The position numbers and the translations under genes were made by a program. The notes under the pieces are model-generated. The model did not search any database and was not told the DNA's origin. It saw only the letters and a program-made list of their open reading frames with translations. Source: an uncultured delta proteobacterium (lineage in GTDB: Bacteria; Myxococcota; Myxococcia; Myxococcales; Myxococcaceae). From it: 64,000 nucleotides of DNA. This document shows, piece by piece, positions 5,706 through 61,138 of this stretch (the first letter of the stretch is position 1; every line of letters begins with the position of its first letter). The DNA lies in NCBI GenBank assembly GCA_963771175.1, contig CAVYSY010000033.1, forward strand, positions 416,001 through 480,000, read 5' to 3'.

Positions 5706-7193
5706 TCACATCGGGTCGGGACGGGTGGTGCGCTGCTCGTCGGAGCCGGACTTCGAGCCGCCGGGACGCACCGCGGGCGGAGAGGCAGACACCGGGCCCA
5801 CGTAGAAGACACCGTGGTAGCCGGACTCGGTCGGCTGCTCGAAGAAGGACACGAAGTACCGGTCCCCGTTGTCCTTGCCCTTCGTGGGCCGCTCGCCACA
5901 CTCGAGCGTCTGCTCCACGGAGCAGATCCACGCCGTGCCGCTGTCGAAGGCCACGTCCAGCGACAGCAGGGAGGGCAGCTTCTGGGCGAGCATGTAACCC
6001 ATGGGGCGGTAACCCAGGTCCCACGGCACTCCCGGGTTGGTGCGCGGGTGGATGTTGCCGGTGACGACGAGGAAGAAGCGTCGAGGGCCCTGCTCCACCT
6101 GGGAGAGGATCGTCCGGGCCATGGCCCCCTCGCGGCTCTCGCCCTGCAGCTCCGGGTGGTCGAAGACGAAGACGTTCACGTCCAACCCCTGGGCACGCAG
6201 CCAGCGGAGCTGCTCCAGCAACTGGGCCACCGCCTCGCTGCTGCGTCCGTCCGGGTAGGGGCTGCGCCAGAAGGGGCTCTCCATCAGCAGCGCATGGTCT
6301 TCCTCGGTGCCCGCGCTGGCGATGAAGCGCCGCACACGCTCCTGGTTCTCCACCGGCATCTCCAGGCCCACCGTCACCGGCGTGCCGCGCGTGGCCACCT
6401 GGCAGGCACCCAGTGCCACGAAGCGGGGCACCTCCCGCGTGCCGTGCAGCTCGCCCAGCAGCAGCACCGTGCCCGGCTGGCTCTTCCCGGCGAGCCCGAT
6501 GATGGGCATGCCGCACTCGATGGACGCGCCGCCCGGCTCCTGCTTCGTCGCCGCCAGCGCCGGCCCCTCCACGCCCTTCTTGCGCACATCCAGCACCGGC
6601 ACGACGCCCTGCCTCAGCGACCACTCCATCGCCGAGTCCCGAGCGCCCTGCACGGACTCCCCCATCGTGCCGAGCGCGTCCATGGGGACGAGGAAGCTGC
6701 TCACGGACTCGTCGGGGACGAAGCGCAGCTTCTCCTCGCTGGAGGGCACGCGCACGTCGTACTCCTCCATGCGGATGCCCCCACCCGGCAGGCCGTCATT
6801 GGGGGAGCCCGGGAAGCGGCTCCCCGACCAGTCCGGTTGCTTCGCATCGTTGACGGGAGCCCCATCGGGGCTGCGGCTGGAGCGGATGACCCACACCTTG
6901 CTGCGCGCCGGGGCCTCCCGCTTGCCGATGACGGTGTAGCGGTGCCAGTAGCCGGCGACCTTCGAACCGGCGAACTCCTCGCGCCACTCCGTCTGCAACA
7001 CGAAGTGGGGCGCGTCCTCCCGGTATTTGTACCCGCCGTCCCGGAACCAGGCCTCCACCACGGGCCAGACCTCTTCCAGGGGGTGCTCGTAGACAGCCTC
7101 CTCCTGCTTCTCCAGCCGGAGGATGCCCTGTCGCGAGGCGCACCCCACCAGCCCCCCCAGCAGGAGAACCGGGATGAAGATGGCCGCTCGCAT
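5706..7193 (-). CDS. Lipoprotein, paralog of 4241..5647
   Basis: Lipobox LVGC; shares EWREEFAGS..AGYWHRY, GELHGT, LMESPFWRSPYPDGR, DSGTAWIC, GYHGVFYVG with the downstream paralog. Confidence 0.75.
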   Translation of the reverse strand: MRAAIFIPVLLLGGLVGCASRQGILRLEKQEEAVYEHPLEEVWPVVEAWFRDGGYKYREDAPHFVLQTEWREEFAGSKVAGYWHRYTVIGKREAPARSKVWVIRSSRSPDGAPVNDAKQPDWSGSRFPGSPNDGLPGGGIRMEEYDVRVPSSEEKLRFVPDESVSSFLVPMDALGTMGESVQGARDSAMEWSLRQGVVPVLDVRKKGVEGPALAATKQEPGGASIECGMPIIGLAGKSQPGTVLLLGELHGTREVPRFVALGACQVATRGTPVTVGLEMPVENQERVRRFIASAGTEEDHALLMESPFWRSPYPDGRSSEAVAQLLEQLRWLRAQGLDVNVFVFDHPELQGESREGAMARTILSQVEQGPRRFFLVVTGNIHPRTNPGVPWDLGYRPMGYMLAQKLPSLLSLDVAFDSGTAWICSVEQTLECGERPTKGKDNGDRYFVSFFEQPTESGYHGVFYVGPVSASPPAVRPGGSKSGSDEQRTTRPDPM

Positions 7194-7289
7194 CCAAAAC
7201 CTCCCTGGGCGTGACGCCCGCAAACGTCTTAACGACTCCGACGCGCGGACATACTGCCTGGAAATGAGCGGATTTTCGCGGGGGCTATC

Positions 7290-9350
7290 CTACCCGCCCC
7301 CACCCTGCCCCAACTCCTCCAGCAACCGGCGGGCGTCGTAGACCTTCCGGAGCCCCTCCAGGATGCCCTGGCTGTGGACGGAGACGCTGCGGTTGGCGGA
7401 CTCGTCGAAGCCGTACTCGCCCCCCAGGGACTGGATGTTGCCGTCGAAGACGATGCCGACAATCTCCGCGTCCTTGTTGAAGATGGGAGACCCCGAGTTG
7501 CCGCCGATGATGTCGTTGGAGCTCACGAAGTTGAACGACGTCTGGAGCTCCAGGCGGGGCTTCGCCTTCAACCAGCTCGGCGGCAGGCGGAAGGGGTCCT
7601 CGCCGGTGGCGCGCTCGTAGAGGCCGGAGATGAGGGTGAAGGGCTCCACCGTCCTGCCCTCCTCCGAGTAACCCTTCACCTGACCGAAGGACAGACGGAG
7701 CGTGAAGGTGGCATCCGGGTAGATGCTGGTGCCGTAGGCCTCGAAGCGGGCGCGGGCGATGAGCTCGCCGTTCTTGTCGACGACGGACTCCACCTCCTCC
7801 TCGTAGCGCTTGCGGATGGCGCGCGCCTCGTCCTCGAAGGAGCGGATGAACTCCAGCATCGGGTCCTTCGAGCCGCGGATGGCGGCCGGACCGCCCTGGT
7901 AGAGCTGGCGGCGGACCTTTGGGCTGGCCAGCTTCGTACCGGCCACCAGCTTGCGCGCGATCGCCCGCGGGGACTGCTTGCCCAGCACCTTCTTCACCAC
8001 CGGATCATCCGGCCCGAGCTGCTCGCGCAACTTCGTCAGGTAGAAGGTGAGCAGCGCCTGCTCCAGTTGGGGGTAGACGGGCGCCGGGCTGAAGAGCTGC
8101 TGCTCCAGCTCCGGCTTGCGCGCCTCGGCGTACTCCTCCAACCGCAGCTCGTTGGGCTTGGGCAGCTCCTCCGCCGAGCGGACGAGCAGGCGCGCATAAC
8201 CAAAGAGGTCCGAGCCCGCCCCGGAGCTCTGCTCCAGCAGCCGCAGCCGGATGCGCATGTCCCGCAGCGTGTCCGTGGACTTCGCGATGTTGTCCCACGC
8301 CTGACCGAAGCGCTTCTGGCGCGCGGGGTCCGCCTTCACCCAATCGCGCAGCTTCTGCTCCTCGGCCACCTTCTTGGCGAAGAAGTCCCGGTCCACCAGC
8401 GCCTCGCGCCGGCCCACCAGCGCCTTGTAGGAGTTCTCCACGCCGAACTTGAGGTTGTTGGAGATGCGGGTGAGCTCGGGGCCACGCTGCTGGAACTCGT
8501 CGAGCAGCCCGCGGAGCTGCGCCAGTTGGAAGAGGCGCTCGGGCAGCGCATAGTCGCGCTGGTAGAGGAGCTGGGCCTGCGTCAGCAGGCGCGAGGTGCC
8601 GCCCGGGTGCCCGGAGACGAAGGTGAGCTCACCCGCCTGCGCGCCCCTGGCCGACCAGCGGAAATAGTCGTCCACCTTCGCCGGCTTGCCTTCCTGGTAC
8701 ACGCGCACGAAGGCCACGTCGTAGTCGTAGCGGGGGAACTCGAAGTTGTCCGGGTCGCCTCCGAAGAAGGCGATGGCCTCCTCGGGAGCGAACACCAGCC
8801 GCACGTCCTGGAAGCGCTGGTACTTGTACAGGTTGTACATGCCGCCCTGGTACAGCGACACCACGTCACAGCGGGTGTCGGGCGCGGTGGCGCAGCCCTT
8901 CTCCAACCGGGCGATCTCCGCCCGCTGCGCATCCCGGAAGGCCGCGCCCTCCTTGCCCTGCGTGGCCTTCGTCACCTGCTCGGTGACGTCGGAGATCTCC
9001 ACCAGCCTGTTGACCTCCATCGCCGGGCACTGCCGCTCCTGCTGCGCGGTGGCCGCGATGAAGCCCTTCACGATGTAATCGTTCTGCGGAGTGGAGAGTT
9101 GCTGCGCGCACTCGCGCACGCAGTGGTGGTTGGTCATCACCAGCCCAGTGGGGGACACGAAGCTGGCCGAGCAGCCGCCGGCGATCCGGGCCGAGGAGAG
9201 CCGGACCTTCCGCAGCCATTCCGAGTCAGGTGCGAAGCCGTACCGGGCCTTCACCAGGTCAGAGGGAAAGTTGTTGAAGGTCCACATCCCCTCATCGGCA
9301 CGGGCGAGCCCGGCGGCGAGCAGGACGAGGACGGGGAGCAACCGTGTCAT
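7290..9350 (-). CDS. S46 family dipeptidyl peptidase (DPP7/DAP BII-like)
   Basis: Signal peptide followed by ADEGMW; GGCSASFVS..GLVMTNHHC; DIIGGNSGSP; FDGN. Confidence 0.95.
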   Translation of the reverse strand: MTRLLPVLVLLAAGLARADEGMWTFNNFPSDLVKARYGFAPDSEWLRKVRLSSARIAGGCSASFVSPTGLVMTNHHCVRECAQQLSTPQNDYIVKGFIAATAQQERQCPAMEVNRLVEISDVTEQVTKATQGKEGAAFRDAQRAEIARLEKGCATAPDTRCDVVSLYQGGMYNLYKYQRFQDVRLVFAPEEAIAFFGGDPDNFEFPRYDYDVAFVRVYQEGKPAKVDDYFRWSARGAQAGELTFVSGHPGGTSRLLTQAQLLYQRDYALPERLFQLAQLRGLLDEFQQRGPELTRISNNLKFGVENSYKALVGRREALVDRDFFAKKVAEEQKLRDWVKADPARQKRFGQAWDNIAKSTDTLRDMRIRLRLLEQSSGAGSDLFGYARLLVRSAEELPKPNELRLEEYAEARKPELEQQLFSPAPVYPQLEQALLTFYLTKLREQLGPDDPVVKKVLGKQSPRAIARKLVAGTKLASPKVRRQLYQGGPAAIRGSKDPMLEFIRSFEDEARAIRKRYEEEVESVVDKNGELIARARFEAYGTSIYPDATFTLRLSFGQVKGYSEEGRTVEPFTLISGLYERATGEDPFRLPPSWLKAKPRLELQTSFNFVSSNDIIGGNSGSPIFNKDAEIVGIVFDGNIQSLGGEYGFDESANRSVSVHSQGILEGLRKVYDARRLLEELGQGGGG

Positions 9351-24282: not shown

Positions 24283-24651
24283 ATGGACGAGACGTTGCAA
24301 CCCAGGCTTGGCGTGGAGCTCCGCAGGGCCCGGGTGCGCCTGGATCTCACCCAGGAGCAGGTGGCCAGGGCGGTGGGTTTCGTCCCGGTGGTCTATGGGC
24401 GCATCGAGCGCGGAGACATGCTGCCCAGCGTCCCCAAGCTGAGGGACTTGTGCACCACCCTGGGCCTCTCGGCCGATGTGCTCCTCTCGTTGCGCTCCCC
24501 GGAGGGCACGCCCCAGGAACAGCCTCCGACGTCCGCGCCAGACCAGTCCCCGGAGTTCCGGCGACTCACCATGCTCGTGCGCGAGCTGCCACCCGACAGG
24601 CTCGACCTGTTCCGCATCGTGCTCGAGTCGCTCATCTCCAAAGAGGAGTGA
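24283..24651 (+). CDS. XRE-family HTH transcriptional regulator
   Basis: LRRAR..LDLTQEQVARAVG...YGRIERG..LPSVPKL. Confidence 0.88.
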   Translation: MDETLQPRLGVELRRARVRLDLTQEQVARAVGFVPVVYGRIERGDMLPSVPKLRDLCTTLGLSADVLLSLRSPEGTPQEQPPTSAPDQSPEFRRLTMLVRELPPDRLDLFRIVLESLISKEE

Positions 24652-24755
24652 GGCGGGGAACGCACGGAGGGATGTTGGGTGGATGCACTTCCCCGTGCAT
24701 GCGCGAGGCGCCCGTGGGTGGGTCATGTTAGTCTACACCACCTTGGAGGTGGTGC

Positions 24756-26791
24756 ATGAGGGAGGCCGAGGAGAGGGGCCAGGACACCGGGGCGAGAAAG
24801 CCGTCGCGGCGCCGACTGCCGCGGGAGGCAGCCAGAACACCGGTGGAGGAGCAACTGCCGCCCCTGGGCACGGAGGTGGGGGGATTCCGGCTGGAGGCGA
24901 AGCTGGGAGAGGGAGGCTTCGGCACCGTGTACCTGGCCTGGCGCGGCGGCAGGCCGTACGCCGTCAAGTTCCTCTACCTGCCGGCGGTCGAGCCCTGGGC
25001 ATGGCGCGAGCTGGAGGTGATGCTGCAACTGCGACGAGCGGGGTGGGTGGTGGTGGAGGGCCATGGCCGCTGGCCGGACAGGGCCCCGCGCTTCCTCTTC
25101 CTGGTCATGCCGTACGTGCGCGGTACGCCCCTGTTCGACTGGGCCCGGGAGAAGAATCCCAACGCGCGGCAGGTGGTCGAGGTGGCGGTGCCGCTGGCCG
25201 GCAGCTCGGGGCGGTGCACCGGGCGGGCGTGGTGCACCGGGACGTGAAGGGCGCCAACGTGCTGGTGCGAGAGAAGGATGGGCAGCCCGTGCTGGTGGAC
25301 TTCGGCGTGGGCACCTACCCGGGGGCGCCGGAAGTCACCCTCCCCTTCATGCCTCCGGGCACCGCGCTCTACCGCAGCCCCGAGGTGATTCGCTTCCGGC
25401 GGCGGACGCTGGGGGACGAGCGCTACCCGTCCACGCCCGGGGACGACTTGTGGGCCCTGGGTGTCCTGCTCTACTGGCTGCTCACGGGCGACTACCCCTT
25501 CCAGGGCCGTGACGCGGGCGACCTGGCCGAAGCCATCCTCCGCTCCGCCCCCGTTCCGCCGCACGAGCGCAACCCACGCGTGCCCCGGGCGCTGAGCGAG
25601 GTGTGCCTGCGCATGCTGGAGAAGGCCCGCGAGGCACGCTACCCGGACGCCGAGGCCGTGGCCGTGGCCCTGGAGGCGGCACTGGCGGGGGCGGACGCGA
25701 GCTGGGAGGTGCCACTGGGCGAGGCGTGGGGCCCGGACAACGCCACCACCCCGGTGGAGGTGAGCCTGGGCATCCACGAGGGGCTGGCGCGCATGCACCG
25801 GGTGGAGGAATACGAGCGGCAACACCTCCGGCGCGGCATGCCCGCCCCCAGGGTGGAGGCCACCACCCTGCTGCCGCCTACCGTGGGCGCGCCATCCACG
25901 GGAGAAGGCACGGACGAGGAGGAGGAGCCCCCTGCCCCCGAGCCGCGGACACGGGCCTTCCCCTGGCGAGCATTCGGAGGGGCCGTGCTGGCGCTGCTGC
26001 TGGCCTGCATGGCCGGGCTCGCCGTCTGGCATTTCCGAGTCGGCACGGAGCCAACGCCGCCCGTGACGACTTTTCCGGTGACCCCCGCATCCACCACGCC
26101 GGAGGTCAGAAAAGTGGCGCCCGCGAGCAAGCCGCTGGAAGGTAGTGCGGACGCAGCGCCCTCGCGGGCTCCCACCCCTGCGCCCGTCGCCAGCGCGACG
26201 CTCCCCAAGGAAGACACGCGCGTGAAGACTTCACGGAAGGCTCCCACCCCGGAGAAGAAGCAGCAGAAGATGAAGGACACGTGCTCCATGGCCATGAAGG
26301 CCGGTGCGCTCGCCACCGGCACCGTCCTCTCGGCCTGTGCTGGCCCCACTCACGTCCCCCTCGCGCGCCCCATGCCTCCGCCCACCGAGTGCCCGCGCGG
26401 TGCCGTGGAGACCATGAAGGAGCTGGGCTTGCGAATTGGAGCGAGGCAGGACGCCGAGCTCCTCGGTGGGTATCTTTCCGAAGAGCTCCGTTACCAGCCC
26501 GTGCGTGAGGGCCCGGGCTCCGTGATGCTCCTCGATGAGACCGATACGAAGTTGCCAGATGGCACCCTTATCGTCGGAGAGTTCTTCTTTGGGAGGGACC
26601 GCGTCTACGGTCGCTTCACCCAGGCCCAAACACCCGGCGGTGTGACGTACCCAGTCTGCATGGAGCTCATCGGCAGGACGGACGTCGCCGGCATCGGCGT
26701 CAGCATCGACGAGCTGATACCAGGCGACGGTCCGGGCACCGCCAAGCTCTTTTTCTCCCAGGGCGCGAGAGCCGTGGAGCGTTTCGAGTAG
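24756..26791 (+). CDS. Ser/Thr protein kinase with TM and extracytoplasmic domain, frameshift near 25200
   Basis: LGEGGFGTVY, AVK in 24756..25247; HRDVKGAN, DFG, YRSPE, DLWALG in the second frame. Confidence 0.88.
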
Positions 26792-32639: not shown

Positions 32640-33092
32640 TCATGCCGGCCCGGCCGCTGGCGAGTCGCCCTCGTGGACGTGCGCCTTCTGCTCCCGGTAG
32701 TCAGTGATGTGCTCGTAGACGCTCTCCGGGAACTGGAGGTCCTTGTAGACGTTGCAGGCGTCCGGGTCCTCCGCATTGGGGCAGATGGGAAACTCCTGCT
32801 GCGCCTGGAATTGGAGCACCTTCTCGCGCCGGGGCGGGCTGTAGTCCTTCGCCTTCACCTGCTCGATGAGCGCGAGCGCCTGCCGCTCATCACAGGCCGG
32901 ATCCCGCAAGAGCGTGTCCCGCAACTCCTCCTCGTCGAGGAAGTAGCGCGCCACCATCGCGAAGACGAGCCGGCCGAAGTGGCCGATGTCCTGGCCCTCG
33001 TCGAGCGAGTCCAGCAGGTGCGCCATCATCCCGTTCTTCCGGAGCGTCTCGCGCCCGCTGCTGCTCCGGTTCTCCTTGCGTATACGTGCCAT
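32640..33092 (-). CDS. Hypothetical protein, PriL C-terminal/PriX-like helical domain
   Basis: GQDIGHFGRLVF...DYSPPRREK...PICP pattern. Confidence 0.6.
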   Translation of the reverse strand: MARIRKENRSSSGRETLRKNGMMAHLLDSLDEGQDIGHFGRLVFAMVARYFLDEEELRDTLLRDPACDERQALALIEQVKAKDYSPPRREKVLQFQAQQEFPICPNAEDPDACNVYKDLQFPESVYEHITDYREQKAHVHEGDSPAAGPA

Positions 33093-33319
33093 GGCTCGAG
33101 TCCTCTCGTGGAAGCAGTCGAACCGCGCCTTCTGAAAACGCGTTCAGTCCTTCACAGGAAGCTAGGCACCACGTGCAGCGCGTCCAGGGGTCCGTCACGG
33201 CTGTCTGGAGGTCAGCCACCCGGGCACGGAGAATACGGGCACCAGCGCTCCATGGAGGCGAACACTCGAGGCGGACACTCCGCCCCGGGAGGGCATGGGA
33301 GTGCTATGTCCCCGGAGCC

Positions 33320-33829
33320 ATGCTCACGCTCTCCAGCCTGACCGAGTCCCTGTCCCGCCTCGCCTCGTCCGAGACCCTGCGCCGCGCGTGGGGCGTGCTG
33401 CGCCACGCTCCCGGCGGTGGGGTCCTGATGGGGCAGCTCCTCGGCAACCTCGCGCCCTATACCGGCACCATCCACCCGGAAGTGCTCTCCCTGGAGGAGG
33501 GCTACGCCCGCGTGCGGATGCGCGACCGGCGAAGCGTCCGCAACCACCTGCGCTCGGTGCACGCCATCGCGCTGATGAACCTGGGCGAGGTGGCCACCGG
33601 GGTCGCGATGATGTCCGCCCTGCCCGGGGACATGCGGGGCATCATCACTCACCTGGAGATGGACTACCTGAAGAAGGCACGCGGTTCCATCACCGCCGAG
33701 TGCCGCGCCCCCACCGCCGTGGCCGGCGAGCGGCGCGAGTACGAAGTCCAGGCGGACCTGAGCGATGAGTCCGGCCAGGTGGTGGCCCGGGCCCGTGCGC
33801 GCTGGCTCATCGGCCCCGCCACGCACTGA
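33320..33829 (+). CDS. Hotdog-fold thioesterase-like protein (DUF4442)
   Basis: APYTGTI, VRNHLRSVHAIAL.NLGE, YLKKARG. Confidence 0.85.
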   Translation: MLTLSSLTESLSRLASSETLRRAWGVLRHAPGGGVLMGQLLGNLAPYTGTIHPEVLSLEEGYARVRMRDRRSVRNHLRSVHAIALMNLGEVATGVAMMSALPGDMRGIITHLEMDYLKKARGSITAECRAPTAVAGERREYEVQADLSDESGQVVARARARWLIGPATH

Positions 33830-33852
33830 CCCGGGCCCCCGGGGGTCCGCGG

Positions 33853-34212
33853 TCAGTGCCCCGCGTCCGTCCCGGCGTCCGCGGGCTGCGTGCCCGCATC
33901 ACCGTTGACCGTGCCGTCGCAGGAGGACGGCGCCGTGCCACCATCCGACAGGGTCGTGACGCAGGGCTCGACGTCGTAGCAGTGGTACGGATCCGTGCCG
34001 CCATCCGGAGCGGGCGTGTCGCAGGGAGGCATGCCGTAACAGGCCATCAGGGTGATGGCCGCCACCCCCGCGCCGGCCAGGCAGAACAGCCCCTTCAGCA
34101 TCACGCCCCCGCGCGGCGCCGACTCCATCATCGGCGCGCCGCAGTGCACGCACTCGGCGCTCGCGGGCGGGACGAAACCACGACACTTCTGACAGGAAGA
34201 GAGCGAGGACAT
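33853..34212 (-). CDS. Small zinc-ribbon / lipobox-CYG protein, candidate radical SAM substrate
   Basis: CQKC..CVHC, hydrophobic segment ending TLMAC-YG, acidic D(G/A)GT repeats; AGGAG RBS; divergent from the rSAM gene. Confidence 0.65.
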   Translation of the reverse strand: MSSLSSCQKCRGFVPPASAECVHCGAPMMESAPRGGVMLKGLFCLAGAGVAAITLMACYGMPPCDTPAPDGGTDPYHCYDVEPCVTTLSDGGTAPSSCDGTVNGDAGTQPADAGTDAGH

Positions 34213-34266
34213 CGGGACTCCTGGGTGCCACGGCCGCCGGAATGGCGGCCGACCGGGCGGGCCTTC

Positions 34267-34282
34267 AGCGAAGAGCGTGCCG
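34267..34282 (-). promoter_or_regulatory. Candidate sigma-54 (-24/-12) promoter
   Basis: Minus strand CGGCACGCTCTTCGCT (GG-N10-GC), about 55 bp upstream of the 34212 start. Confidence 0.4.
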
Positions 34283-34381
34283 CACGGAAGAGGCTGGAAT
34301 GACTGGGTTTCCGCGCTCAACCCCTCTGACAGGCATGTCAGGGGGAGGGGGTTGCGCCCGCTTCTTGCTCCAGCCGAACGT

Positions 34382-35637
34382 ATGTCCATGTTGCGCCGAC
34401 TCGACGTCACCCAGCCCGACCACCACCCCGCCTACGTGGTCTGGGAGCTGACCCTCCGCTGCGACCAGCCCTGCACCCACTGCGGCTCGCGCGCGGGCAC
34501 GCACCGCGCCCGACGAGCTCTCCACCGAGGAGGCGCTCGACGTGGTCCGGCAGCTCCGCGGCGATGCGCGCCCGTGAGGTGGTGCTCATCGGCGGCGAGG
34601 CCTACCTGCACCCGGGCTTCCTCGACATCGTCCGCGCGCTGAAGGCCGCGGGCATCCGCCCGAGGCTGACCACCGGTGGGCGCGGCATCACCGAGGCCCT
34701 CGCCCGACAGATGGCCGAGGCCGGGCTGTACGCGGCCTCCGTCAGCATCGACGGGCTGGAGCCGACGCATGACCTGATGCGCGCCGCCCCGGCAGCTTCG
34801 CCTCGGCCACCGGGGCGCTCCGTTCGCTGGGCGCGGCCGGCGTGCTCGATGGCCGCCAACACCAACCTCAACCGGCTCAACCAGGCGGACCTGGAGCCGC
34901 TCTACGAGCACCTCGCGGGCCTGGGCATCCGCGCCGTGGCAGGTTCAGATCACCGCGCCCGCTCGGGCGCGCGGCCGACCGCCCGGCGATGCTGCTCCAA
35001 CCGTGGGACCTGATGGACGTGCGTCCCACGCATCGCGGCCCTGAAGACGCGCGCCTTCGAGGACGGCATCACCCTCATGCCCGGCAACAACCTCGGGTAC
35101 TTCGGGCCCGAGGAGGGACTGCTGCGCTCCCTCCGCCCCGATGGCCGGGGACCACTGGCGGGGCTGCCAGGCGGGCCGGTACGTCATGGGCATCGAGTCC
35201 GATGGAGCGGTGAAGGGATGCCCCTCGCTCCAGACGGCGCACTACGTCGGCGGCAACCTGCGCCAGCAGCCCCTGCGCGACATCTGGGAGCGGCTCGCGG
35301 GAGCTCGCCTTCACGCGCACGCGCACCGTCGACGACCTCTGGGGCTTCTGCCGCACCTGCCCCTTCGCCGCGACGTGCATGGCCGGCTGCAGCTTCACCG
35401 CCCACGCCCTGTTCGGCAGGCCGGGCAACAACCCCTACTGCCACTACCGCGCGCGGACGCTGGCGAAGCAGGGCCTCCGCGAGCGCCTCGTCCCCGAAGG
35501 CCCCCGCCCCCGGCCAACCCTTCGACAACGGCCTGTTCGAGCTGGTGCTCGAGCCGCTCGACGCACCGGACCCGCGCCCGCCCACGCCGCGAGAGTTGGT
35601 GAAGAAACGAAAGTGGCGGGAAGTTGGTACGCCGTGA
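34382..35637 (+). CDS. Radical SAM/SPASM domain protein, multiple frameshifts
   Basis: VVWELTLRCDQPCTHCGSRAG (CxxxCxxC), IGGEAYL, SVSIDG, GNNLGYFGP, CQAG..GIESDGAVKGCPSL, CRTCPFAATCMAGC..NPYC recovered from alternating frames. Confidence 0.85.
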
Positions 35638-35686
35638 GGCATCCGGGGCATGCTGGCGCATCTCGCGGCCGGCTCCGGAGGCTTCC

Positions 35687-37408
35687 ATGGCATCCCCCGT
35701 GTTTGGATTCGCCGATCTGCACTGCCACACGATGGCGCACCTGGGCTTTGGCGGGCACCTGCTCGCCGGACGCCCGGATGGAGACATCGCGCAGGCGCTC
35801 GCCCGCTGTGACATCCATCTCCACGGCAAGTGGGGCATCGGCAACTTCGGGAAGGATTGGCCGCTGGTGCAGGCCTTCATCGAGGGCGGCCTGGGTCACG
35901 GCCCCTGTGGCCACGACACCTACGCCGACTGGCCCCACTTCAACACCATGGTCCACCAGCAGGTCTTCGTGGACTGGCTCAAGCGGGCTCACGATGGAGG
36001 GCTGCGGCTGCTGTGCAGCGTGGCCGTCAACAACGAACTCCTCGCGGAGGAGAGCCACCATCCCGACAGCGACCAGAGCTCCATCGAGAAGCAGATGGCC
36101 GAACTGCGCCGCTTCACCGAGCGGCACGCGGACTGGATGGGCCTGGCCCTGAGCGCCTCGCAGGCCCGCCAGCTCATCGCGTCCGGCAAGCTGGCCGTGG
36201 TGGCCAGCGTGGAGGTGGACTCGCTGGACAGCCTCCTGGGCAACCGCAAGGCGCTCGGCGAGAAGCCCCTCACCCTGGAGCAGCTTCCCCGCATCCTCCA
36301 ATGGCTCCGGGACCAGGGCTTCCGGATGATGACGCCGCTGCACCTGAGCAACAACAGCTTCGGCGGCGCCGCCGTCTACGACGACAAGTTCAACCTGCTG
36401 AACCACTTCCTGCGCGGGCACTTCTTCGACGTGCGGGGCAACCCCAGCGTGGGTTTCCGGCTCGGGCAGGACATGAACACCCAGACCAAGCTGTCCGTCT
36501 CCGTCTACGAGCTCACTCGCCGGGCGCACTACCCCCGGGGCTACAAGGACAACGCACCGGGGCAGGGCCACATCAACGCGCTCGGGCTCACCCCCACGGG
36601 CGAGGTCTTCCTGCGCGAGGCCATGCGTCAGGGCTTCATCCTCGACCTGGAACACATGTCCGAGCTCTGCACCGACGCCGTCATTGCCCTGGCCGAGCGG
36701 CACCACTACCCCCTCGTCTCCTCGCACTGCGCCTTCCGCGAGCAGGGCCTGGAGCCCCAGGAGACGAGCTTCAAGTCCAAGCGCGCCAACGAGTACATGA
36801 AGACGCGCGAGCAGGCGTGGCGCATCCTCGCGCTGGGCGGGATGCTGGCGCCCATCACCAACCAGCACGAGCTGAAGGACTTCCCCGGCAGCACGGTGGA
36901 GAACGACTGCGCGCGCTCGTCCAAGACGTGGGCGCAGTCCTACCAGTACGCCCTCTCCTTGCTGCGCGAGGTGGGCTCCGGCGGCGTGGCCATGGGCACC
37001 GACTTCAACGGCCTCAATCAGCAGCCGGGGCCCCGGTATGGGCCCAACGCCGCCTGCGGGCTGAAGGGGGACAAGCTGCGCGAGAAGCAGCTCCCCATCC
37101 AGCAGATGCTCCAGCGCAACAAGCCGCCACTGCCCTACTCCGGCACCATGCACCGGACGAACGTGCCCTTCGTGCGCTCGCGCGCCGGCACCCGCGAGTT
37201 CGACTTCAACACCGACGGGCTGGCCCACATCGGCCTGCTGCCGGACCTCATCCGCGACCTCCTCCACGTGGGCATGACGGACGCGCAGCTCGACCCGCTC
37301 TTCTCCTCGGCCGAGGCCTTCCTCCGCATGTGGGAGACCTGTGAGACCCGCTCCGCCGCCAATCTCGCCGGCGAGCTGGTGGATGCGGCGATTCCCCGGC
37401 TCACGTAG
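35687..37408 (+). CDS. M19 membrane/renal dipeptidase family amidohydrolase
   Basis: FADLHCH, EVDS, DLEHMS, VSSH, MGTDFNG, GLAHIGLLPD. Confidence 0.8.
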   Translation: MASPVFGFADLHCHTMAHLGFGGHLLAGRPDGDIAQALARCDIHLHGKWGIGNFGKDWPLVQAFIEGGLGHGPCGHDTYADWPHFNTMVHQQVFVDWLKRAHDGGLRLLCSVAVNNELLAEESHHPDSDQSSIEKQMAELRRFTERHADWMGLALSASQARQLIASGKLAVVASVEVDSLDSLLGNRKALGEKPLTLEQLPRILQWLRDQGFRMMTPLHLSNNSFGGAAVYDDKFNLLNHFLRGHFFDVRGNPSVGFRLGQDMNTQTKLSVSVYELTRRAHYPRGYKDNAPGQGHINALGLTPTGEVFLREAMRQGFILDLEHMSELCTDAVIALAERHHYPLVSSHCAFREQGLEPQETSFKSKRANEYMKTREQAWRILALGGMLAPITNQHELKDFPGSTVENDCARSSKTWAQSYQYALSLLREVGSGGVAMGTDFNGLNQQPGPRYGPNAACGLKGDKLREKQLPIQQMLQRNKPPLPYSGTMHRTNVPFVRSRAGTREFDFNTDGLAHIGLLPDLIRDLLHVGMTDAQLDPLFSSAEAFLRMWETCETRSAANLAGELVDAAIPRLT

Positions 37409-38906: not shown

Positions 38907-39338
38907 ATGGCGAACACCGACGTCGAGACACTGAACTCCTTCCTTCGCGGTGAAATCTCCGCGGTGGAGACCTACCGTCAGGCCATCGGCCACGTGTCGG
39001 ATGGACTCATTCGCGGCACGCTCGAGGACTGCCTGCACGACCACGAGCACCGTGTGGAGGCCATCCGCGAGCGCATCGAGAAACTCGGGGGCACGCCCGT
39101 CGAAAGCTCCGGCATCTGGGGCACCTTCGCGAAGCTGGTGCAGACGGGCGCCGATGTCCTGGGTGAGAAGACGGCCATCCAGGCTCTCGAGGAGGGCGAG
39201 GACCATGGGCTCTCGGACTACCAGCGCGACCTGGACAAGACCCATGGCGAGGCCCGCCGCTTCGTCCGCATGGAGCTGCTGCCCTCGCAGAAGCGCACCC
39301 ACGAGAGGATGAGCCGCATCAAGAAGACCATCCACTGA
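38907..39338 (+). CDS. Ferritin-like DUF2383 protein
   Basis: LNSFLRGEISAVETY..A, DHEH, LEEGEDHGL..Y. Confidence 0.85.
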   Translation: MANTDVETLNSFLRGEISAVETYRQAIGHVSDGLIRGTLEDCLHDHEHRVEAIRERIEKLGGTPVESSGIWGTFAKLVQTGADVLGEKTAIQALEEGEDHGLSDYQRDLDKTHGEARRFVRMELLPSQKRTHERMSRIKKTIH

Positions 39339-39483
39339 CGGAAGACAGCGTGGGCGTGACAGCACCGCCCAGGCCATGAGCAGCACGGTGAGCACCGGGA
39401 GGAGCGCCGCCGGACGCGCTCCTCCCGAGGGCCGGCTCGACAGGCTCTCGGTGGGCTCGGGACGGCCGTGTACACTCCTCCCA

Positions 39484-40464
39484 ATGGAGAGCCCCCTGCC
39501 CAAGGCGTGCCCCCGTTGTGGTGAGCCTCGCATCCTCGCGCCGGAGTGTCCGAGCTGCGGCGTCCTCTACGCCAAGGCGGAGGCCCGTGCGGCACGGCTC
39601 GCCACGCAGCCCGCTCCCGTCTCCTACGCCGAACCCGAGCGCCCTCCGCACCTCCCACCGGAAGGGCTCGCCTGGGGCGGAGACCTCGAGGACGCACGGC
39701 TCGAGCTGCGGATGCGCCAGTTCGCCCTTCCCGTGGCGCTCGGCATGGCCTGGCTGCTCGTGAATGCTCCGATGGGCGGCAGCCTCGTTCGCGTCTTCCT
39801 CTCCATGTGGGTCCACGAGTTGGGCCACGCCGTCACTGCCTGGTTCTGCGGCTTCCCCGCCATCCCCGGGCCCTGGGTCACCCGCATCTCGGAGACCCGC
39901 TCCACCCTCCTCTTCCTGCTCCTGGCCGCCTCGCTCGGAGGGCTCATCCTCCGCGGGTGGTTCACCCAGCGCCGCTCCCTGATGATCGCGGGCGCCACGG
40001 GGCTCGTCCTCCAGTTCGTGGGCACCGGGGTGCTGTCTCCCACGAAGGGCATACAGCTCTTCACCTTCGGGGGCGATGCCGGGTGCCTCGTCATTGGCAG
40101 CCTCCTGATGGCGACCGTCTACGCGCCCAGGGAGTCCTCCCTCCGGCGCGGCTGGCTGCACTGGGGCTACCTGGTCATCGGCGCCACGTCCTTCATGGAC
40201 GTCTTCTCCGAGTGGTGGGCCGCCCGGAGTGATTTCGAGCGAATCGCCTTCGGTGAGAACGAGGGCGTCGGGCTGAGCGATCCCTCCAAGCTCGTCGACG
40301 TCTACGGCTGGACCGAGACCGAGCTGGTCCGGCGCTACACCTGGCTGGGACTGGCCTGCCTGGCCGCGCTCGCCGTCCTCTACACGGTGGGACTGCTCCG
40401 CGCCCGCGCCGAGCTGCGCGCGCTGGAGCACGTCACCGGGGAAGCGGGCCCGCGGGCCCGCTAG
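39484..40464 (+). CDS. Membrane protein with N-terminal zinc ribbon and HExxH (M50-like metalloprotease)
   Basis: CPRC..CPSC; VHELGH; multiple TM helices; LSD motif. Confidence 0.7.
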   Translation: MESPLPKACPRCGEPRILAPECPSCGVLYAKAEARAARLATQPAPVSYAEPERPPHLPPEGLAWGGDLEDARLELRMRQFALPVALGMAWLLVNAPMGGSLVRVFLSMWVHELGHAVTAWFCGFPAIPGPWVTRISETRSTLLFLLLAASLGGLILRGWFTQRRSLMIAGATGLVLQFVGTGVLSPTKGIQLFTFGGDAGCLVIGSLLMATVYAPRESSLRRGWLHWGYLVIGATSFMDVFSEWWAARSDFERIAFGENEGVGLSDPSKLVDVYGWTETELVRRYTWLGLACLAALAVLYTVGLLRARAELRALEHVTGEAGPRAR

Positions 40465-58035: not shown

Positions 58036-58353
58036 ATGCCGAACAGCCTGCTCGTCGTCCACGTCCACGTCCACGTCAAGCCCGAGTCGGTCGAGGCCTT
58101 CCGCGAGGCCACCCTGGCCAACGCCCGCGAGAGCGTGAAGGAGCCGGGCATCGCTCGCTTCGACGTCATCCAGGACACCGAGGACCCGACGCGCTTCGTG
58201 CTGGTCGAGGTCTACCGGACGCCCCAGGCGCCGGCCGCCCACAAGGAGACGGCGCACTACCTGACGTGGCGCGACACGGTGGCGCCGATGATGGCCGAGC
58301 CGCGCACCAGCCGGAAGTACGTCAACCGCTTCCCCGACGACGCGGGCTGGTGA
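58036..58353 (+). CDS. Antibiotic biosynthesis monooxygenase-fold protein (LsrG-like)
   Basis: [33 protein letters not shown]. Confidence 0.88.
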
Positions 58354-58354
58354 C

Positions 58355-59519
58355 ATGGGTGTGAGTGGCTTCGAGTTCGCCACCGCCACGCGCATCGTCT
58401 TCGGGGCGGGCCGCCTGGCCGAGGCCCCCGAGGCGGTGCGGGCCCTGGGCGGCCGCAGGTGCTCCTCGTCACCGGCCGCGACCCCGACGCGCGCCGAGCC
58501 GCTGCGCGAGGGACTCGCCCGGCTGGGGCTCCCCAGCGTCACCTTCGCGGTGGAGGGCGAGCCCACCGTGGAGCTGGCACGGGAGGGCACCGCCGCCGCC
58601 GTTGCCGACGCTGCGACGCGGTGGTGGCCTTCGGCGGCGGCAGCGCGCTCGACGCGGGCAAGGCCATCGCCGCGCTGGCCGCCAACGGCGGCGACCCGCT
58701 CGACTACCTGGAGGTGGTCGGCCGGGGCAGGCGCTGACGAAGCCCTCGCTGCCGTTCGTGGCCATTCCCACCACCGCGGGCACCGGCTCCGAGGTGACGC
58801 GCAACGCGGTGCTGGCGTCGCAGGACGCCCAGGTCAAGGCGAGCCTGCGCAGCCCGCTCATGCTGCCGCGGCTGGCCCTCGTCGATCCCGACCTGCTGAC
58901 GGGCGCGCCTCCCGCGGTGCTGGCCTCCAGCGGGCTGGACGCGCTCTCGCAGCTCATCGAGCCCTTCCTCTCGGCCCGCGCCAACCCGCTCACCGACGCG
59001 CTGGCCCGCGAGGGACTGGGCCGCTCGGCACGCTCGCTGCGCCGCGCGGTGCTGGAGGGGCCCGACGCGGCGGCGCGCGAGGACCTGGCGCTCGCGAGCC
59101 TCTTCGGCGGCCTGTGTCTGGCCAACGCGGGCCTGGGCGCGGTGCACGGCTTCGCGGCGCCGGTGGGCGGCATGTTCGACGCGCCCCATGGCGCGGTCTG
59201 CGCGGCGCTGCTCCCCGCCACACTGGAGGTGAACCTGCGCGCACTGCGGGCCCGGGCGCCAGCGCACCCCGCGCTGCCCCGCTTCCAGGAGGTGGCGGCG
59301 CTGCTCACCGGGCGCGCGGAGGCGCGGGCCGAGGACGGCATCGCCTGGGTGAAGGAGCTCTGCCAGTCGCTGGCCGTGCCGGGCCTGGGGCGCTACGGAT
59401 TGACGGAGGCGGACGTGCCACGGCTCGTGGCTCGGGCGAAAGCAGCCAGCAGCATGAAGGGCAACCCCTTGGCGCTCACGGACGAGGAGCTCACGGAGAT
59501 CGCTGTCCGCTCGCGGTGA
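58355..59519 (+). CDS. Iron-containing alcohol dehydrogenase, several frameshifts in 58450-58730
   Basis: [51 protein letters not shown]. Confidence 0.9.
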
Positions 59520-59530
59520 GGGAAAACGGT

Positions 59531-59755
59531 ATGGCCAACAGGATCAGTCGGATCACCTCCTTCGTCGAAAAGCGCCGGCTCGGCTTCGGTGTCGCGCGGC
59601 TCATCATGATGAGCGGCGTGAATGTCCGCAGCTTCGGGCCGAATGATCCGGACCCACCCGACGCCCTGAAGCGTCTGGAGCAGGTGCTTCCCCAAATCCT
59701 CTCGGCACCGGAGCTGAGGGAGCTCGCCAACCTTCTTTCGGAGGCAGGAACATGA
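59531..59755 (+). CDS. Small hypothetical protein (74 aa), translationally coupled to the FIST gene
   Basis: GAGGG RBS; ATGA overlap with the next gene. Confidence 0.6.
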   Translation: MANRISRITSFVEKRRLGFGVARLIMMSGVNVRSFGPNDPDPPDALKRLEQVLPQILSAPELRELANLLSEAGT

Positions 59756-60940
59756 CCGTCGCGATTGGAGTCGGGTACGGAGATGCCGCGGATGCGGTGA
59801 AGGCCGTCCAGGCAGCGGTGGAGCAGGCGCGGGCGCAACTCGGAGGAGTCCCCGCCCAGGCGGCCTACATCACCTCCACGGTGGACCACGAGGCCACGCG
59901 TGTCCACGCCGCCTTCCAGGAGGCGCTGGCCGGGGTGCCTCTGCACGGGGTGACCACGTCGCTGGGCGTCCTCACGCCGGACGGAGTGCGCAACGAGGGC
60001 CATGGCGCGGTGGCGGTGATGCTGGTGGGCGGCGCACCGGGGACGGCCTTCGTGGCCTCCTCCCTGGAGGCGGAAGGGCGCCGGGCTGGTGAGGCCGCGG
60101 CGCGGGAGCTGGTGCGGAAGGCCGGCGGGAAGATGCCGCGGATGATCCTCTTCAACGCCTCGCCCGGCGAGGAGGAGGCGATGCTGACGGGCATCGCGAG
60201 CGTGTGCCCGGAGGTGCCGTGCCAGGGGGGCAGCGCCGCGGACCATGCCATCGCCGGTCAGTGGAGCGTCTTCACACAGGAGGGCCCGGTACCCACGGGC
60301 GTGTCGCTGCTGGGCATCTTCGGCGAGGGGCGGGTGGGGACGGCGCTGTCCACGCCCTACAGCCCCACGGGCGAGCGCGCCCGAGCCACGGGGACACAGG
60401 GTCGCACCCTGCTGACTCTGAATGGCCAGCCCGCCGCGCAGGTGCTGGGGCGCTGGCTGGAGGGAGCCATCGATCACCAGGTGCACTCGGGCGGCAACAT
60501 CCTGGCGCAGACGGCACTGCGGCCCATCGCCGTGCGCCGTGACGTGGGCAGCCGGACCCACTACGTGACAGTGCACCCGGCCCAGGTCCACGCGGAGCTG
60601 GGAGCGGTGGACATCTTCGCCCGCATCGAGCCGGATGACGAGGTGTGCCTGATGACCGGCACCGCCGAGGGTCTCGTGGCCGAGGTGGCTCACCTCATCG
60701 ACATGGCGCTGGCGCACGGCAACCTGACGACTCGGGATGTGAAGGGCGCGACGCTCATCTTCTGCGCAGGGTGCGCGGGCGCGTTGGGGCCTCGCATCGA
60801 CGAGGGCCTGCGAACCTTCTCCGCGACTGCTGCCGGGCGTGCCCGTGCTGGGACTGTGTACCTTCGGCGAGCAGGGCCACATCCCGGGCCTGGGCAACGT
60901 CCACCAGGACCTGTCGCTCAGCCTCACGCTGTTCGCCTGA
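59752..60940 (+). CDS. FIST-domain protein, frameshift near 60825
   Basis: GGSAAD, LNGQPAA, FCAGC; the C-terminal GLCTFGEQG...SLTLFA lies in another frame ending at TGA 60938-60940. Confidence 0.85.
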
Positions 60941-61138
60941 CCGACCCCACGGTCCGTCCGAGCCGGGCAGGGCCTGGGCTGACCACGAGTCAAGCCCTCC
61001 GCCCATGCGGTGGAAGCACCCGAATTCGAAGAGTCCGTAAATCTCCGCCTCGGGTGCCGCACGGCCCGTCATATGGGTGCACCGCGCGTTGCACACCCAA
61101 CCCCGCGGGGGCCATCCGCGCTATATCTCCCTGCGTCC

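Follow-up and report, generated by a model that had tools for sequence, protein, structure and literature searches.

A SPASM radical SAM enzyme and a zinc-ribbon protein with a lipobox-like Cys-Tyr-Gly motif form a conserved two-gene module of Myxococcota: a candidate splicease-type system

Two genes lie head-to-head, 169 bp apart, in a 64-kb stretch of contig CAVYSY010000033.1 from an uncultured member of the Myxococcaceae (here called the window; 69.6% G+C, with positions counted from its first nucleotide). One encodes a protein of 119 amino acids (aa) in which a zinc ribbon precedes a lipobox-like motif, and the other a radical S-adenosylmethionine (rSAM) enzyme with a SPASM domain. A sequence-only reading of the window had taken them for a functional pair and had proposed that the enzyme modifies the tyrosine of a Cys-Tyr-Gly segment, for example by a crosslink, to give a lipid-anchored product. 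In this work we have analyzed the two genes in the window, their relatives across the phylum and a model of the complex of their products. The small gene and the rSAM gene constitute a conserved two-gene module of Myxococcota, whose products are very probably substrate and enzyme.

The small gene (33853..34212, minus strand) is an intact open reading frame (ORF) of 119 codons, in which the features noticed earlier, CQKC...CVHC, TLMAC-YG and a D/G/A/T-rich tail, are all present. As read from the sequence, the product begins with the zinc ribbon and continues through a basic linker and a short hydrophobic region into TLMAC-YG and an acidic, Cys-containing tail. On the same strand the codons of the ribbon cysteines C7, C10, C21 and C24 are found at 34141..34194, those of the signal-peptide-like hydrophobic region (about 16-17 residues behind R/K, ending in the lipobox-like L-M-A-C) at 34039..34101 and those of T-L-M-A-C-Y-G (T54...C58-Y59-G60; ACC CTG ATG GCC TGT TAC GGC on the reverse complement) at 34033..34053. 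The stretch 33856..34032 encodes a variable tail, predicted to be exported, with MPPC, DGGT/DAGT repeats and four Cys. The protein reached the threshold of no family in Pfam or NCBIfam, and matched neither a Pfam zinc ribbon nor any model of the Nif11 or nitrile-hydratase-like leader peptide (NHLP) kind in these collections. The sole Pfam match, to DZR_2, was obtained with the ortholog from Vitiosangium (locus L001) and scored 14.6 bits vs a cut-off of 27; a weak match to BufA2 was dismissed (E-value 0.013, 15.7 bits vs 60). When the N-terminal module of the Vitiosangium ortholog was modelled alone, the ribbon appeared as short strands with a predicted local distance difference test score (pLDDT) of 71-77 and residues 36-57 as a helix.

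The rSAM gene (34382..35637, plus strand) starts with the ATG at 34382, not at 34385, and stops at 35635-35637, with its pieces spread over all three frames. The CxxxCxxC motif of the SAM-binding cluster is encoded at 34460..34483 and the SPASM region, whose seven Cys correspond to C260, C278, C321, C324, C330, C334 and C351 of the ortholog and are split over three frames, at about 35165..35441. Pfam Radical_SAM and SPASM both match the fragments, in agreement with the enzyme type assigned to this gene earlier; the best NCBIfam matches are TIGR04103 and TIGR03913, the fragment scores summing to well below the TIGR04103 cut-off. The frameshifts that had been suspected were located by alignment with four intact orthologs (Vitiosangium, two Archangium species and one Archangium metagenome-assembled genome, MAG). 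They are ten 1-bp indels absent from all four, at about 34508, 34562, 34790/1, 34849, 34936, 34957, 35023, 35143, 35291 and 35496 of the plus strand; the one at 34790/1 is a deletion and the other nine are insertions, of which six add a G and two occur in the same local context. After removal of the indel columns the reading is open, with no internal stop, and 380 of 416 residues are identical to the Vitiosangium ortholog; all Cys motifs are kept in their local frames.

We consider it probable that the ten indels are sequence errors rather than true decay, because other genes of the window are frameshifted as well. A Ser/Thr protein kinase gene (24732-26791, plus strand) has an apparent frameshift near 25200, its N-terminal part ending at 25247 and its HRDVKG... 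part continuing in the frame of a long 24443-26791 reading. An iron-containing alcohol dehydrogenase-like gene (58292-59519, plus strand) extends over three frames (58292.., 58354-58737 and 58365-59519), and a FIST-like gene (59750-61000, plus strand) loses its frame near 60830. It is somewhat unlikely, in our judgement, that the module is dead in this genome, with the rSAM gene a true pseudogene carrying ten frameshifts and the small protein made unmodified. Decay confined to the rSAM gene would be compatible with ten indels in 1256 bp next to M19-like, DUF4442 and small genes that each align with their orthologs as a single high-scoring segment pair without indels, and with a ratio of non-synonymous to synonymous substitution (dN/dS) that is slightly higher for the window gene against the four orthologs (0.12-0.16) than for the intact genes among themselves (0.085-0.118). 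However, gene decay is expected to be deletion-biased, and nine of the ten changes are insertions, all of 1 bp and two in a shared context. The near-identity of the read-through to the ortholog, its lack of stops and the retention of every Cys motif also speak against decay, as do the frameshifts in at least three unrelated genes of the window and a fragmented rSAM copy in a second assembly. In the latter, Cystobacter fuscus strain NCWS (L006), the ortholog matches in three pieces at about 6989-7832, the gene being intact in the other C. fuscus genome (L005); L006 may be another assembly with indel errors.

To follow the two genes through the phylum, loci were gathered by a genome scan seeded with the pattern TLMACYG[MA]; 119 matches were obtained, 110 were confirmed as relatives and 78 loci were kept. 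They belong to Archangium, Cystobacter, Corallococcus, Pyxidicoccus, Citreicoccus, Sorangium, Polyangium, Labilithrix and Kofleriaceae, apart from a few MAGs under other labels. A tblastn search with the Vitiosangium rSAM found an ortholog of 62-92% identity in 66 of the 78 loci, and in 63 it lies no more than 1.2 kb from the small gene. This proximity is kept in four gene orders: divergent, as in the window (29 loci), tandem with the small gene first (26), tandem with the rSAM gene first (4) and convergent (4). Three further loci have the rSAM gene 3.7-4.2 kb away and 12 have none, three of these having less than 600 bp on one side. The adjacent pair is present in all seven complete chromosomes of the set (L003, L005, L007, L015, L017, L019 and L025), and two precursor copies stand beside one rSAM gene in eight loci (L032, L046, L050, L051, L056, L058, L072 and L074). 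The functional pairing claimed by the sequence-only reading is thus upheld by synteny. Clustering of the ORFs within about 6 kb in the 78 loci gave no third component: every other neighbour cluster is confined to at most 9 loci, and no protease, transporter or RiPP recognition element (RRE; RiPP, peptide made on ribosomes and modified after translation) gene is conserved beside the pair. In L050 and L058 one of the two TLMACYG copies has no zinc-ribbon pattern in the same ORF. An apparent fusion of the small protein with the rSAM enzyme in L042 was rejected, as it is simulated by consecutive N in the contig.

That the small gene is a real gene follows from a word-indexed search in which 47 of the 58 candidates scored were homologs at E≤0.01, all of them from Archangiaceae, Myxococcaceae or metagenome contigs. 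When the window protein is aligned with 33 of these homologs (14 short or partial matches were left out), T54, L55, Y59 and G60 are invariant, and the four ribbon Cys, M56, A57, C58, P62 and P63 are conserved in at least 90% of the 34 sequences. A second alignment, of the first 80 residues of 60 sequences, was made after omission of L037, a near-duplicate of L036 that was likewise omitted from the enzyme alignment described below; here C7, C10, C21 and C24 are invariant and form two CxxC knuckles with the 9-13-residue spacing of a zinc ribbon. The profile of this alignment, searched without a word index against 1.84 billion cluster representatives, gave 1357 matches at E≤1e-3 and 413 at E≤1e-10. 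Among the best 150 of the 1357 matches 145 were new, namely 125 short proteins and 20 long multi-ribbon proteins matched in the ribbon only, which were set aside before motifs were counted. The conservation check suggested earlier for the motif and the ribbon came out in their favour: A-C-Y-G occurs in 125 of the 125 short matches (TLMACYG in 114, TMMACYG in 6, SLMACYG in 2 and three variants once each) and CxxC..CxxC in 124.

The composition around the motif resembles that of a lipoprotein signal, as had been supposed. Signal peptidase II lipoproteins obey the lipobox rule L-x-[GAS]-C. In a set of 168 members, which comprises only sequences containing ACYG, positions -4 to +3 are T, L, M, A, C, Y and G at 96-100%, the lipobox positions being L(-3) at 96%, M(-2) at 98%, A(-1) at 100% and the Cys at 100%. 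Basic residues (R/K) stand at -18 and at -21 to -24, so that a basic n-region, a short h-region of about 16-17 residues and a lipobox of the form L-x-[GAS]-C are all recognizable in the putative signal. The motif Cys has a median position of 57 (range 30-141) and not one within about the first 35 residues as is usual for lipoproteins, because the N-terminal zinc ribbon extends the n-region. Behind the motif Pro is found at +5 in 85% and at +6 in 74% of the members, and Cys at +7 in only 40%; Polyangia do not conserve the second Cys of CYGMPPC. D, G, A and P abound in the tails, which are about 25 to 400 residues long and in many cases carry Asp/Gly/Cys-rich repeats, so that the partner proteins, of 80-450 aa, vary widely in the length and content of this part. 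Of the 168 proteins 164 have an even number of Cys behind the motif, as would suit a tail that is exported and disulfide-paired; this would leave the motif Cys unpaired and spare for a separate fate such as lipidation. Judged by these features, the small protein looks like a lipoprotein-type precursor whose signal-peptide n-region has been extended by a zinc ribbon, and we infer that the motif Cys is lipidated and that cleavage occurs before it.

The enzyme is best described from the intact Vitiosangium ortholog (L001:6584-7831), a protein of 415 aa with C27xxxC31xxC34 and seven SPASM Cys. These ten cluster Cys are invariant in an alignment of 59 orthologs with a mean column identity of 68%, from which L033 was excluded because of a stop in its reference. 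Pfam Radical_SAM and SPASM both match the ortholog, and the combination of CxxxCxxC with a 7-Cys SPASM region is that of TIGR04103. Because the cluster motif starts already at residue 27, the enzyme has no N-terminal RRE; a beta-rich extension follows the SPASM domain in the AlphaFold2 model (pLDDT 89.9). The family is very large, with 7063 proteins at E≤1e-30 among the 8000 scored, and the best 120 homologs are all at least 69% identical, every named one being from Myxococcota. Against TIGR04103 the Vitiosangium ortholog scored 469.2 bits vs a cut-off of 725, its residues 17-410 aligning with positions 5-401 of the 412-position profile, and against TIGR03913 400.9 bits vs 591.75; heme b synthase, with 148 bits, came third. 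All 59 orthologs match both families (best E-values 8e-144 and 3.8e-128, respectively; the next family about 1e-47). Since both scores stay below the cut-offs, the enzyme is to be regarded as a sister of TIGR04103 and TIGR03913 and a member of neither.

The relation to TIGR03913 proposed from the sequence alone therefore stands in the sense that this is one of the two nearest families, whereas that to the rSAM/lipoprotein pair TIGR04133/TIGR04134 had to be given up: the rSAM enzyme scored 143.4 bits vs 425, the small protein gave no TIGR04134 match at E≤0.1, and the two systems are not homologous but alike only in concept, a SPASM rSAM gene beside that of a putative lipoprotein. Among solved structures the nearest folds are SkfB, PqqE, SuiB, CteB, anSME (anaerobic sulfatase-maturating enzyme) and ChlB, with TM scores (TMq) of about 0.6 and 15-21% identity, and by sequence distant matches only were obtained (SkfB, BlsE and PqqE, E 1e-16 or worse). 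A search of the ESM Atlas yielded only Myxococcota clusters without names, and the copies of Pfam and NCBIfam that were searched hold no specific family model for either protein.

The complex was modelled with the Vitiosangium enzyme, three 4Fe-4S clusters, SAM and the first 80 residues of the partner, with the 59-ortholog and the 60-sequence alignments as input. The score was 0.76 (0.73, 0.86 and 0.76 in the single runs) and none of the three controls exceeded 0.01; at least 56% of the contacts are common to the runs, and the partner pLDDT is 59 or higher. The confidently predicted interface consists of two parts. In the first, partner residues 49-65 (T53-L-M-A-C57-Y58-G59-M-P-P-C in the numbering of this ortholog) lie against the barrel strands at their C-terminal ends and against the first SPASM segment, in contact with enzyme residues 17-22, 67-69, 94-96, 116-119, 155-159 and 183-188 and with 261-268 and 278-280 of SPASM. 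In the second, ribbon residues 4-24 rest on enzyme residues 239-258 and 3-10. The residue pairs of lowest predicted error centre on G59 and Y58 (also A56 and L54) with enzyme residues 18, 20, 67, 69, 96, 119, 186, 266 and 278-280, and among the contacting residues Y18, V20, I69, T96, S119, Q186, V266 and C278-S280 are invariant in the 59 orthologs. The model supports, though it does not show, binding of the partner by the enzyme, with Y-G predicted to lie inside the barrel of the active site and the zinc ribbon on the surface of the enzyme. The ribbon, predicted to be cytoplasmic, would thus dock on the enzyme and is likely to be its recognition element, in line with the leader role assigned to it in the sequence-only reading.

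The region between the two genes holds a sigma-54-type -24/-12 element, GGCACGCTCTTCGC (34268-34281, minus strand), upstream of the small gene. As evidence for the sigma-54-like promoter claimed earlier, the match in the window alone does not suffice, the pattern giving 2 matches there vs 1.0 expected, which is not above chance; what stands is its conservation. An alignment of 10 loci retains GGCA..N..T.GC, which in the divergent arrangement stands about 60-70 nt upstream of the small gene, and 18 of 77 loci have a sigma-54-like site no more than 300 nt upstream, the background being 0.015 per 300 nt. A scan for sigma-70 promoters found none in 33700-35800. The same 10 aligned loci share half-sites related to a palindrome that has CTGACA-N4-TGTCAG as its core, is situated between the two genes (about 34321-34346) and may be the binding site of a regulator or of a sigma-54 activator (enhancer-binding protein).

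Directly downstream of the rSAM gene the plus strand encodes a 594-aa protein with a weak match to Peptidase_M19 (membrane dipeptidase; 35624-37408). On the other side of the pair a DUF4442/hotdog-fold protein is encoded at 33086-33829 (plus strand), ending 24 bp from the stop of the small gene, and next to it a 150-aa ORF without a family match (32640-33092, minus strand). The M19-like and DUF4442 genes were rejected as parts of the module, being conserved at this place only in L001-L004 (Archangium and Vitiosangium) and the window. Further downstream, at 39313-40461 (plus strand), a zinc-ribbon membrane protein of 383 aa with weak Zn_ribbon_3 and Peptidase_M50B-like matches is encoded.

The closest characterized relatives of the enzyme are the tyramine spliceases. 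Passages in PMC11002830 describe PlpX as a SPASM rSAM enzyme (IPR026482) that excises tyramine at Xaa-Tyr-Gly and leaves an alpha-keto amide, its precursors carrying Nif11 or nitrile-hydratase-like leaders. The net reaction, as given in parts of PMC9811515, PMC10533398 and PMC11626197, removes Tyr minus its C1 (C8H9NO, about -135.08 Da) and forms a new C-C bond between C1 of Tyr and C1 of residue X. Sections of PMC11414181 report hundreds of further splicease pathways in diverse bacteria that are two-component systems without the Y protein, and AlphaFold models of known pairs in which XYG occupies the active centre and a leader helix a defined site on the enzyme; the figures quoted from PMC10849128 are 189 genera with splicease-type enzymes and 27 confirmed pairs.

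Like cyanobacterial PlpX with PlpA and PlpY, or the binary pair RhaX/RhaA, the myxobacterial system has an rSAM enzyme with a full 7-Cys SPASM region and no N-terminal RRE. TIGR04103 is the best hidden Markov model match of the enzyme and covers it end to end, and the precursor adjacent to it in 63 of the 78 loci has an invariant X-Y-G, here C-Y-G. With the binary spliceases it shares the absence of a Y protein and the placing of Y-G in the modelled active site, as in the models presented in part of PMC11414181. An annotated member was met on plasmid records of Nostoc, a 'nif11-class peptide radical SAM maturase 3' with 48.5% identity over 90% of the rSAM query (tblastn). The gene before it encodes a Nif11-leader precursor with the core ..I-A-L-Y-G-L-P-P.. 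after a GG site, to be set beside the myxobacterial ..L-M-A-C-Y-G-M-P-P... A 72-aa ORF overlaps the end of the Nostoc maturase gene (L079, 5245-5460) and may encode the small Y/RRE-like partner of cyanobacterial spliceases; no counterpart of it was found in the 78 myxobacterial loci.

From the known spliceases the system differs in several respects. In place of a Nif11 or NHLP leader the partner has a zinc ribbon and a signal-peptide-like region, residue X is a Cys of lipobox type, and predicted exported proteins with variable domains stand where spliceases have short cores. Conservation of the enzyme across the whole phylum is very strong (62-92% identity), its score stays below the family cut-off, and the chemistry is assigned by analogy. 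TIGR03913, the GDL-motif maturases with DUF1843 partners, is the second-best match (46-47% identity) and likewise has small partner proteins with a conserved Tyr near the maturase gene; the present enzyme falls short of its cut-off and the present partner has neither a GDL motif nor a DUF1843 match. We know of no chemistry for this family. Its GDL-type maturases from Azospirillum and Aureibacter are 42-47% identical to the rSAM enzyme, and DUF1843 proteins precede them on the plasmids (L080, 2293-2748; L081, 1701-2414).

On these grounds, with the closest characterized relatives being tyramine spliceases, we regard splicease chemistry as the most likely reaction, with somewhat better than even confidence. 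Before export the cytoplasmic SPASM rSAM enzyme would dock on the zinc ribbon and on the last part of the h-region, and the C-Y-G segment would be taken into the barrel and modified there. Tyramine excision would remove the Tyr except for its carbonyl carbon (C8H9NO, about -135.07 Da), turning Cys-Tyr-Gly into alpha-keto-beta-Cys-Gly; Sec export would follow, possibly with lipidation and cleavage at the motif Cys. Taken as a whole, we slightly favour the view that the module is a binary splicease-type maturase with a zinc-ribbon-led lipoprotein precursor, tyramine being excised at the lipobox Cys. That tyramine splicing is a conserved, phylum-wide protein modification, with the ribbon as a disposable leader removed by signal peptidase II, is a bolder extension which we put forward only tentatively. 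The earlier suggestion that C-Y-G is the target is in keeping with the invariance of the motif and the position of Y58/G59 in the modelled barrel; as for the product, the nearest family of known chemistry points to loss of tyramine and not to a -2 Da crosslink.

Several points weigh against this interpretation. Nine loci have at least 2.5 kb on both sides of the small gene without an rSAM gene. The invariance of the motif within the loci is in part ascertainment, because the scan was seeded with TLMACYG[MA], and synteny was counted from the small-protein side only, the loci having been gathered through the small protein. The enzyme stays below the cut-offs of both TIGR04103 and TIGR03913, it was compared with family models and the annotated Nostoc member and not with the sequence of a characterized splicease, and TIGR04103 is taken by us to equal IPR026482, the PlpX splicease family, an assumption that fits its NCBIfam name, nif11-class peptide radical SAM maturase 3. 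In the DUF1843 proteins G, A or M comes after a conserved N-terminal Tyr (PYG, QPYG, LYAA, MYAA, MYM); as Tyr is not always followed by Gly in this sister family, the splicease clade may not share one chemistry. Cys as residue X is absent from the splicease texts examined, and a thiol beside the radical site could give a thioether instead. The motif is located beyond the hydrophobic segment, from which we infer that the enzyme must act before membrane insertion. The mark used for the complex score is reached by 116 of 157 solved complexes and by 2 of 215 mismatched pairs, counts that hold roughly for the present model because its own alignments and accompanying ligands were used, and since solved SPASM-peptide complexes exist, part of the score, like part of the general binding mode, may have been learned by the predictor from them.

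Several of these points favour the strongest of the rival views of the function, namely that the same enzyme and substrate undergo another reaction, a crosslink or oxidation of the -2 Da type at C-Y-G, such as a thioether from Cys to Tyr or to the backbone, a three-residue cyclophane formed by Tyr or oxidation of Cys in the manner of anSME. The nearest solved folds (SkfB, PqqE, SuiB, CteB and anSME) form thioethers, C-C bonds or formylglycine, an invariant Cys adjoins the Tyr, and both the sub-cut-off TIGR04103 score and the irregular residue after Tyr in the GDL sister family leave room for such a product. We nevertheless hold it to be unlikely. The solved enzymes are distant relatives. The TIGR04103 member from Nostoc is 48.5% identical, and the A-x-Y-G-hydrophobic-P-P context is found in its precursor as well; the second Cys of CYGMPPC lacks conservation, and the even number of tail Cys suggests that the motif Cys is kept for a fate of its own such as lipidation.

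It is decidedly improbable that the small protein is a membrane tether or regulator which recruits the rSAM enzyme through its ribbon, the real substrate being a peptide or small molecule encoded elsewhere. An invariant ribbon modelled on the enzyme surface would suit such a role, as would an enzyme that belongs to a very large family and is far more conserved than its partner, and after insertion of the protein the membrane would separate the motif from the enzyme. Within the partner, however, conservation is highest in T-L-M-A-C-Y-G and not in the ribbon alone, all three complex runs thread this motif through the barrel beside invariant active-site residues, both nearest enzyme families act on or adjoin Tyr-containing precursors, and no other conserved neighbour could serve as the substrate. 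Finally, mere co-regulation or chance adjacency with no direct biochemical link, for which the 12 loci without an rSAM gene and the three with a distant one might be quoted, is very unlikely in view of a proximity kept through four gene orders and several myxobacterial orders, the complex score of 0.76 vs 0.01 for the best control and the lack of any other gene conserved nearby.

The SPASM rSAM enzyme anSME also has no RRE and acts on one residue in a short invariant motif of a protein that is not a RiPP; the sulfatase is modified in the cytoplasm first and then exported. It is a structural neighbour (TMq about 0.6) but a distant one, with 16-17% identity, the motif C/S-x-P/A-x-R and formylglycine as the product. 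The RiPP-like system envisaged in the sequence-only reading is not borne out in its typical form, a short precursor with a dedicated protease, transporter or RRE gene, because the partners have 80-450 aa and exported tails that vary, and neither a protease nor a transporter gene accompanies them. The strings TLMACYG and LMACYG are absent from the literature searched, in which nothing was found on TIGR03913/TIGR04103, on SPASM radical SAM with a lipobox or on a splicease with a lipoprotein; a report on conserved Myxococcota gene clusters (PMC12766979) makes no mention of SPASM, radical SAM, rSAM, ranthipeptide, spliceotide or RiPP-like.

Spliceases with XYG precursors are known, and splicease surveys (Scott et al. 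2022) may already list the Myxococcota type. What appears new, as far as the analogy holds, is the zinc-ribbon-bearing signal region, a splice site that coincides with the lipobox Cys and a modification at the level of proteins throughout a phylum. Tyramine spliceases have been exploited as protein-engineering tools, and a 2022 review states, in the part concerned, that their final natural products from native hosts remained elusive (PMC9811515). If the wider interpretation, as a phylum-wide protein modification, is true, the module would provide the first native, genetically tractable cellular role for spliceases and a new coupling of radical chemistry to lipoprotein sorting, with the zinc ribbon as a folded recognition domain inside a signal-peptide n-region and a reactive ketoamide joining the repertoire of lipoprotein N-termini. 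The conservation of the pair, its putative lipid-anchored substrate and a target site at the lipobox Cys would open this chemistry, in its native role, to direct tests in tractable myxobacteria.

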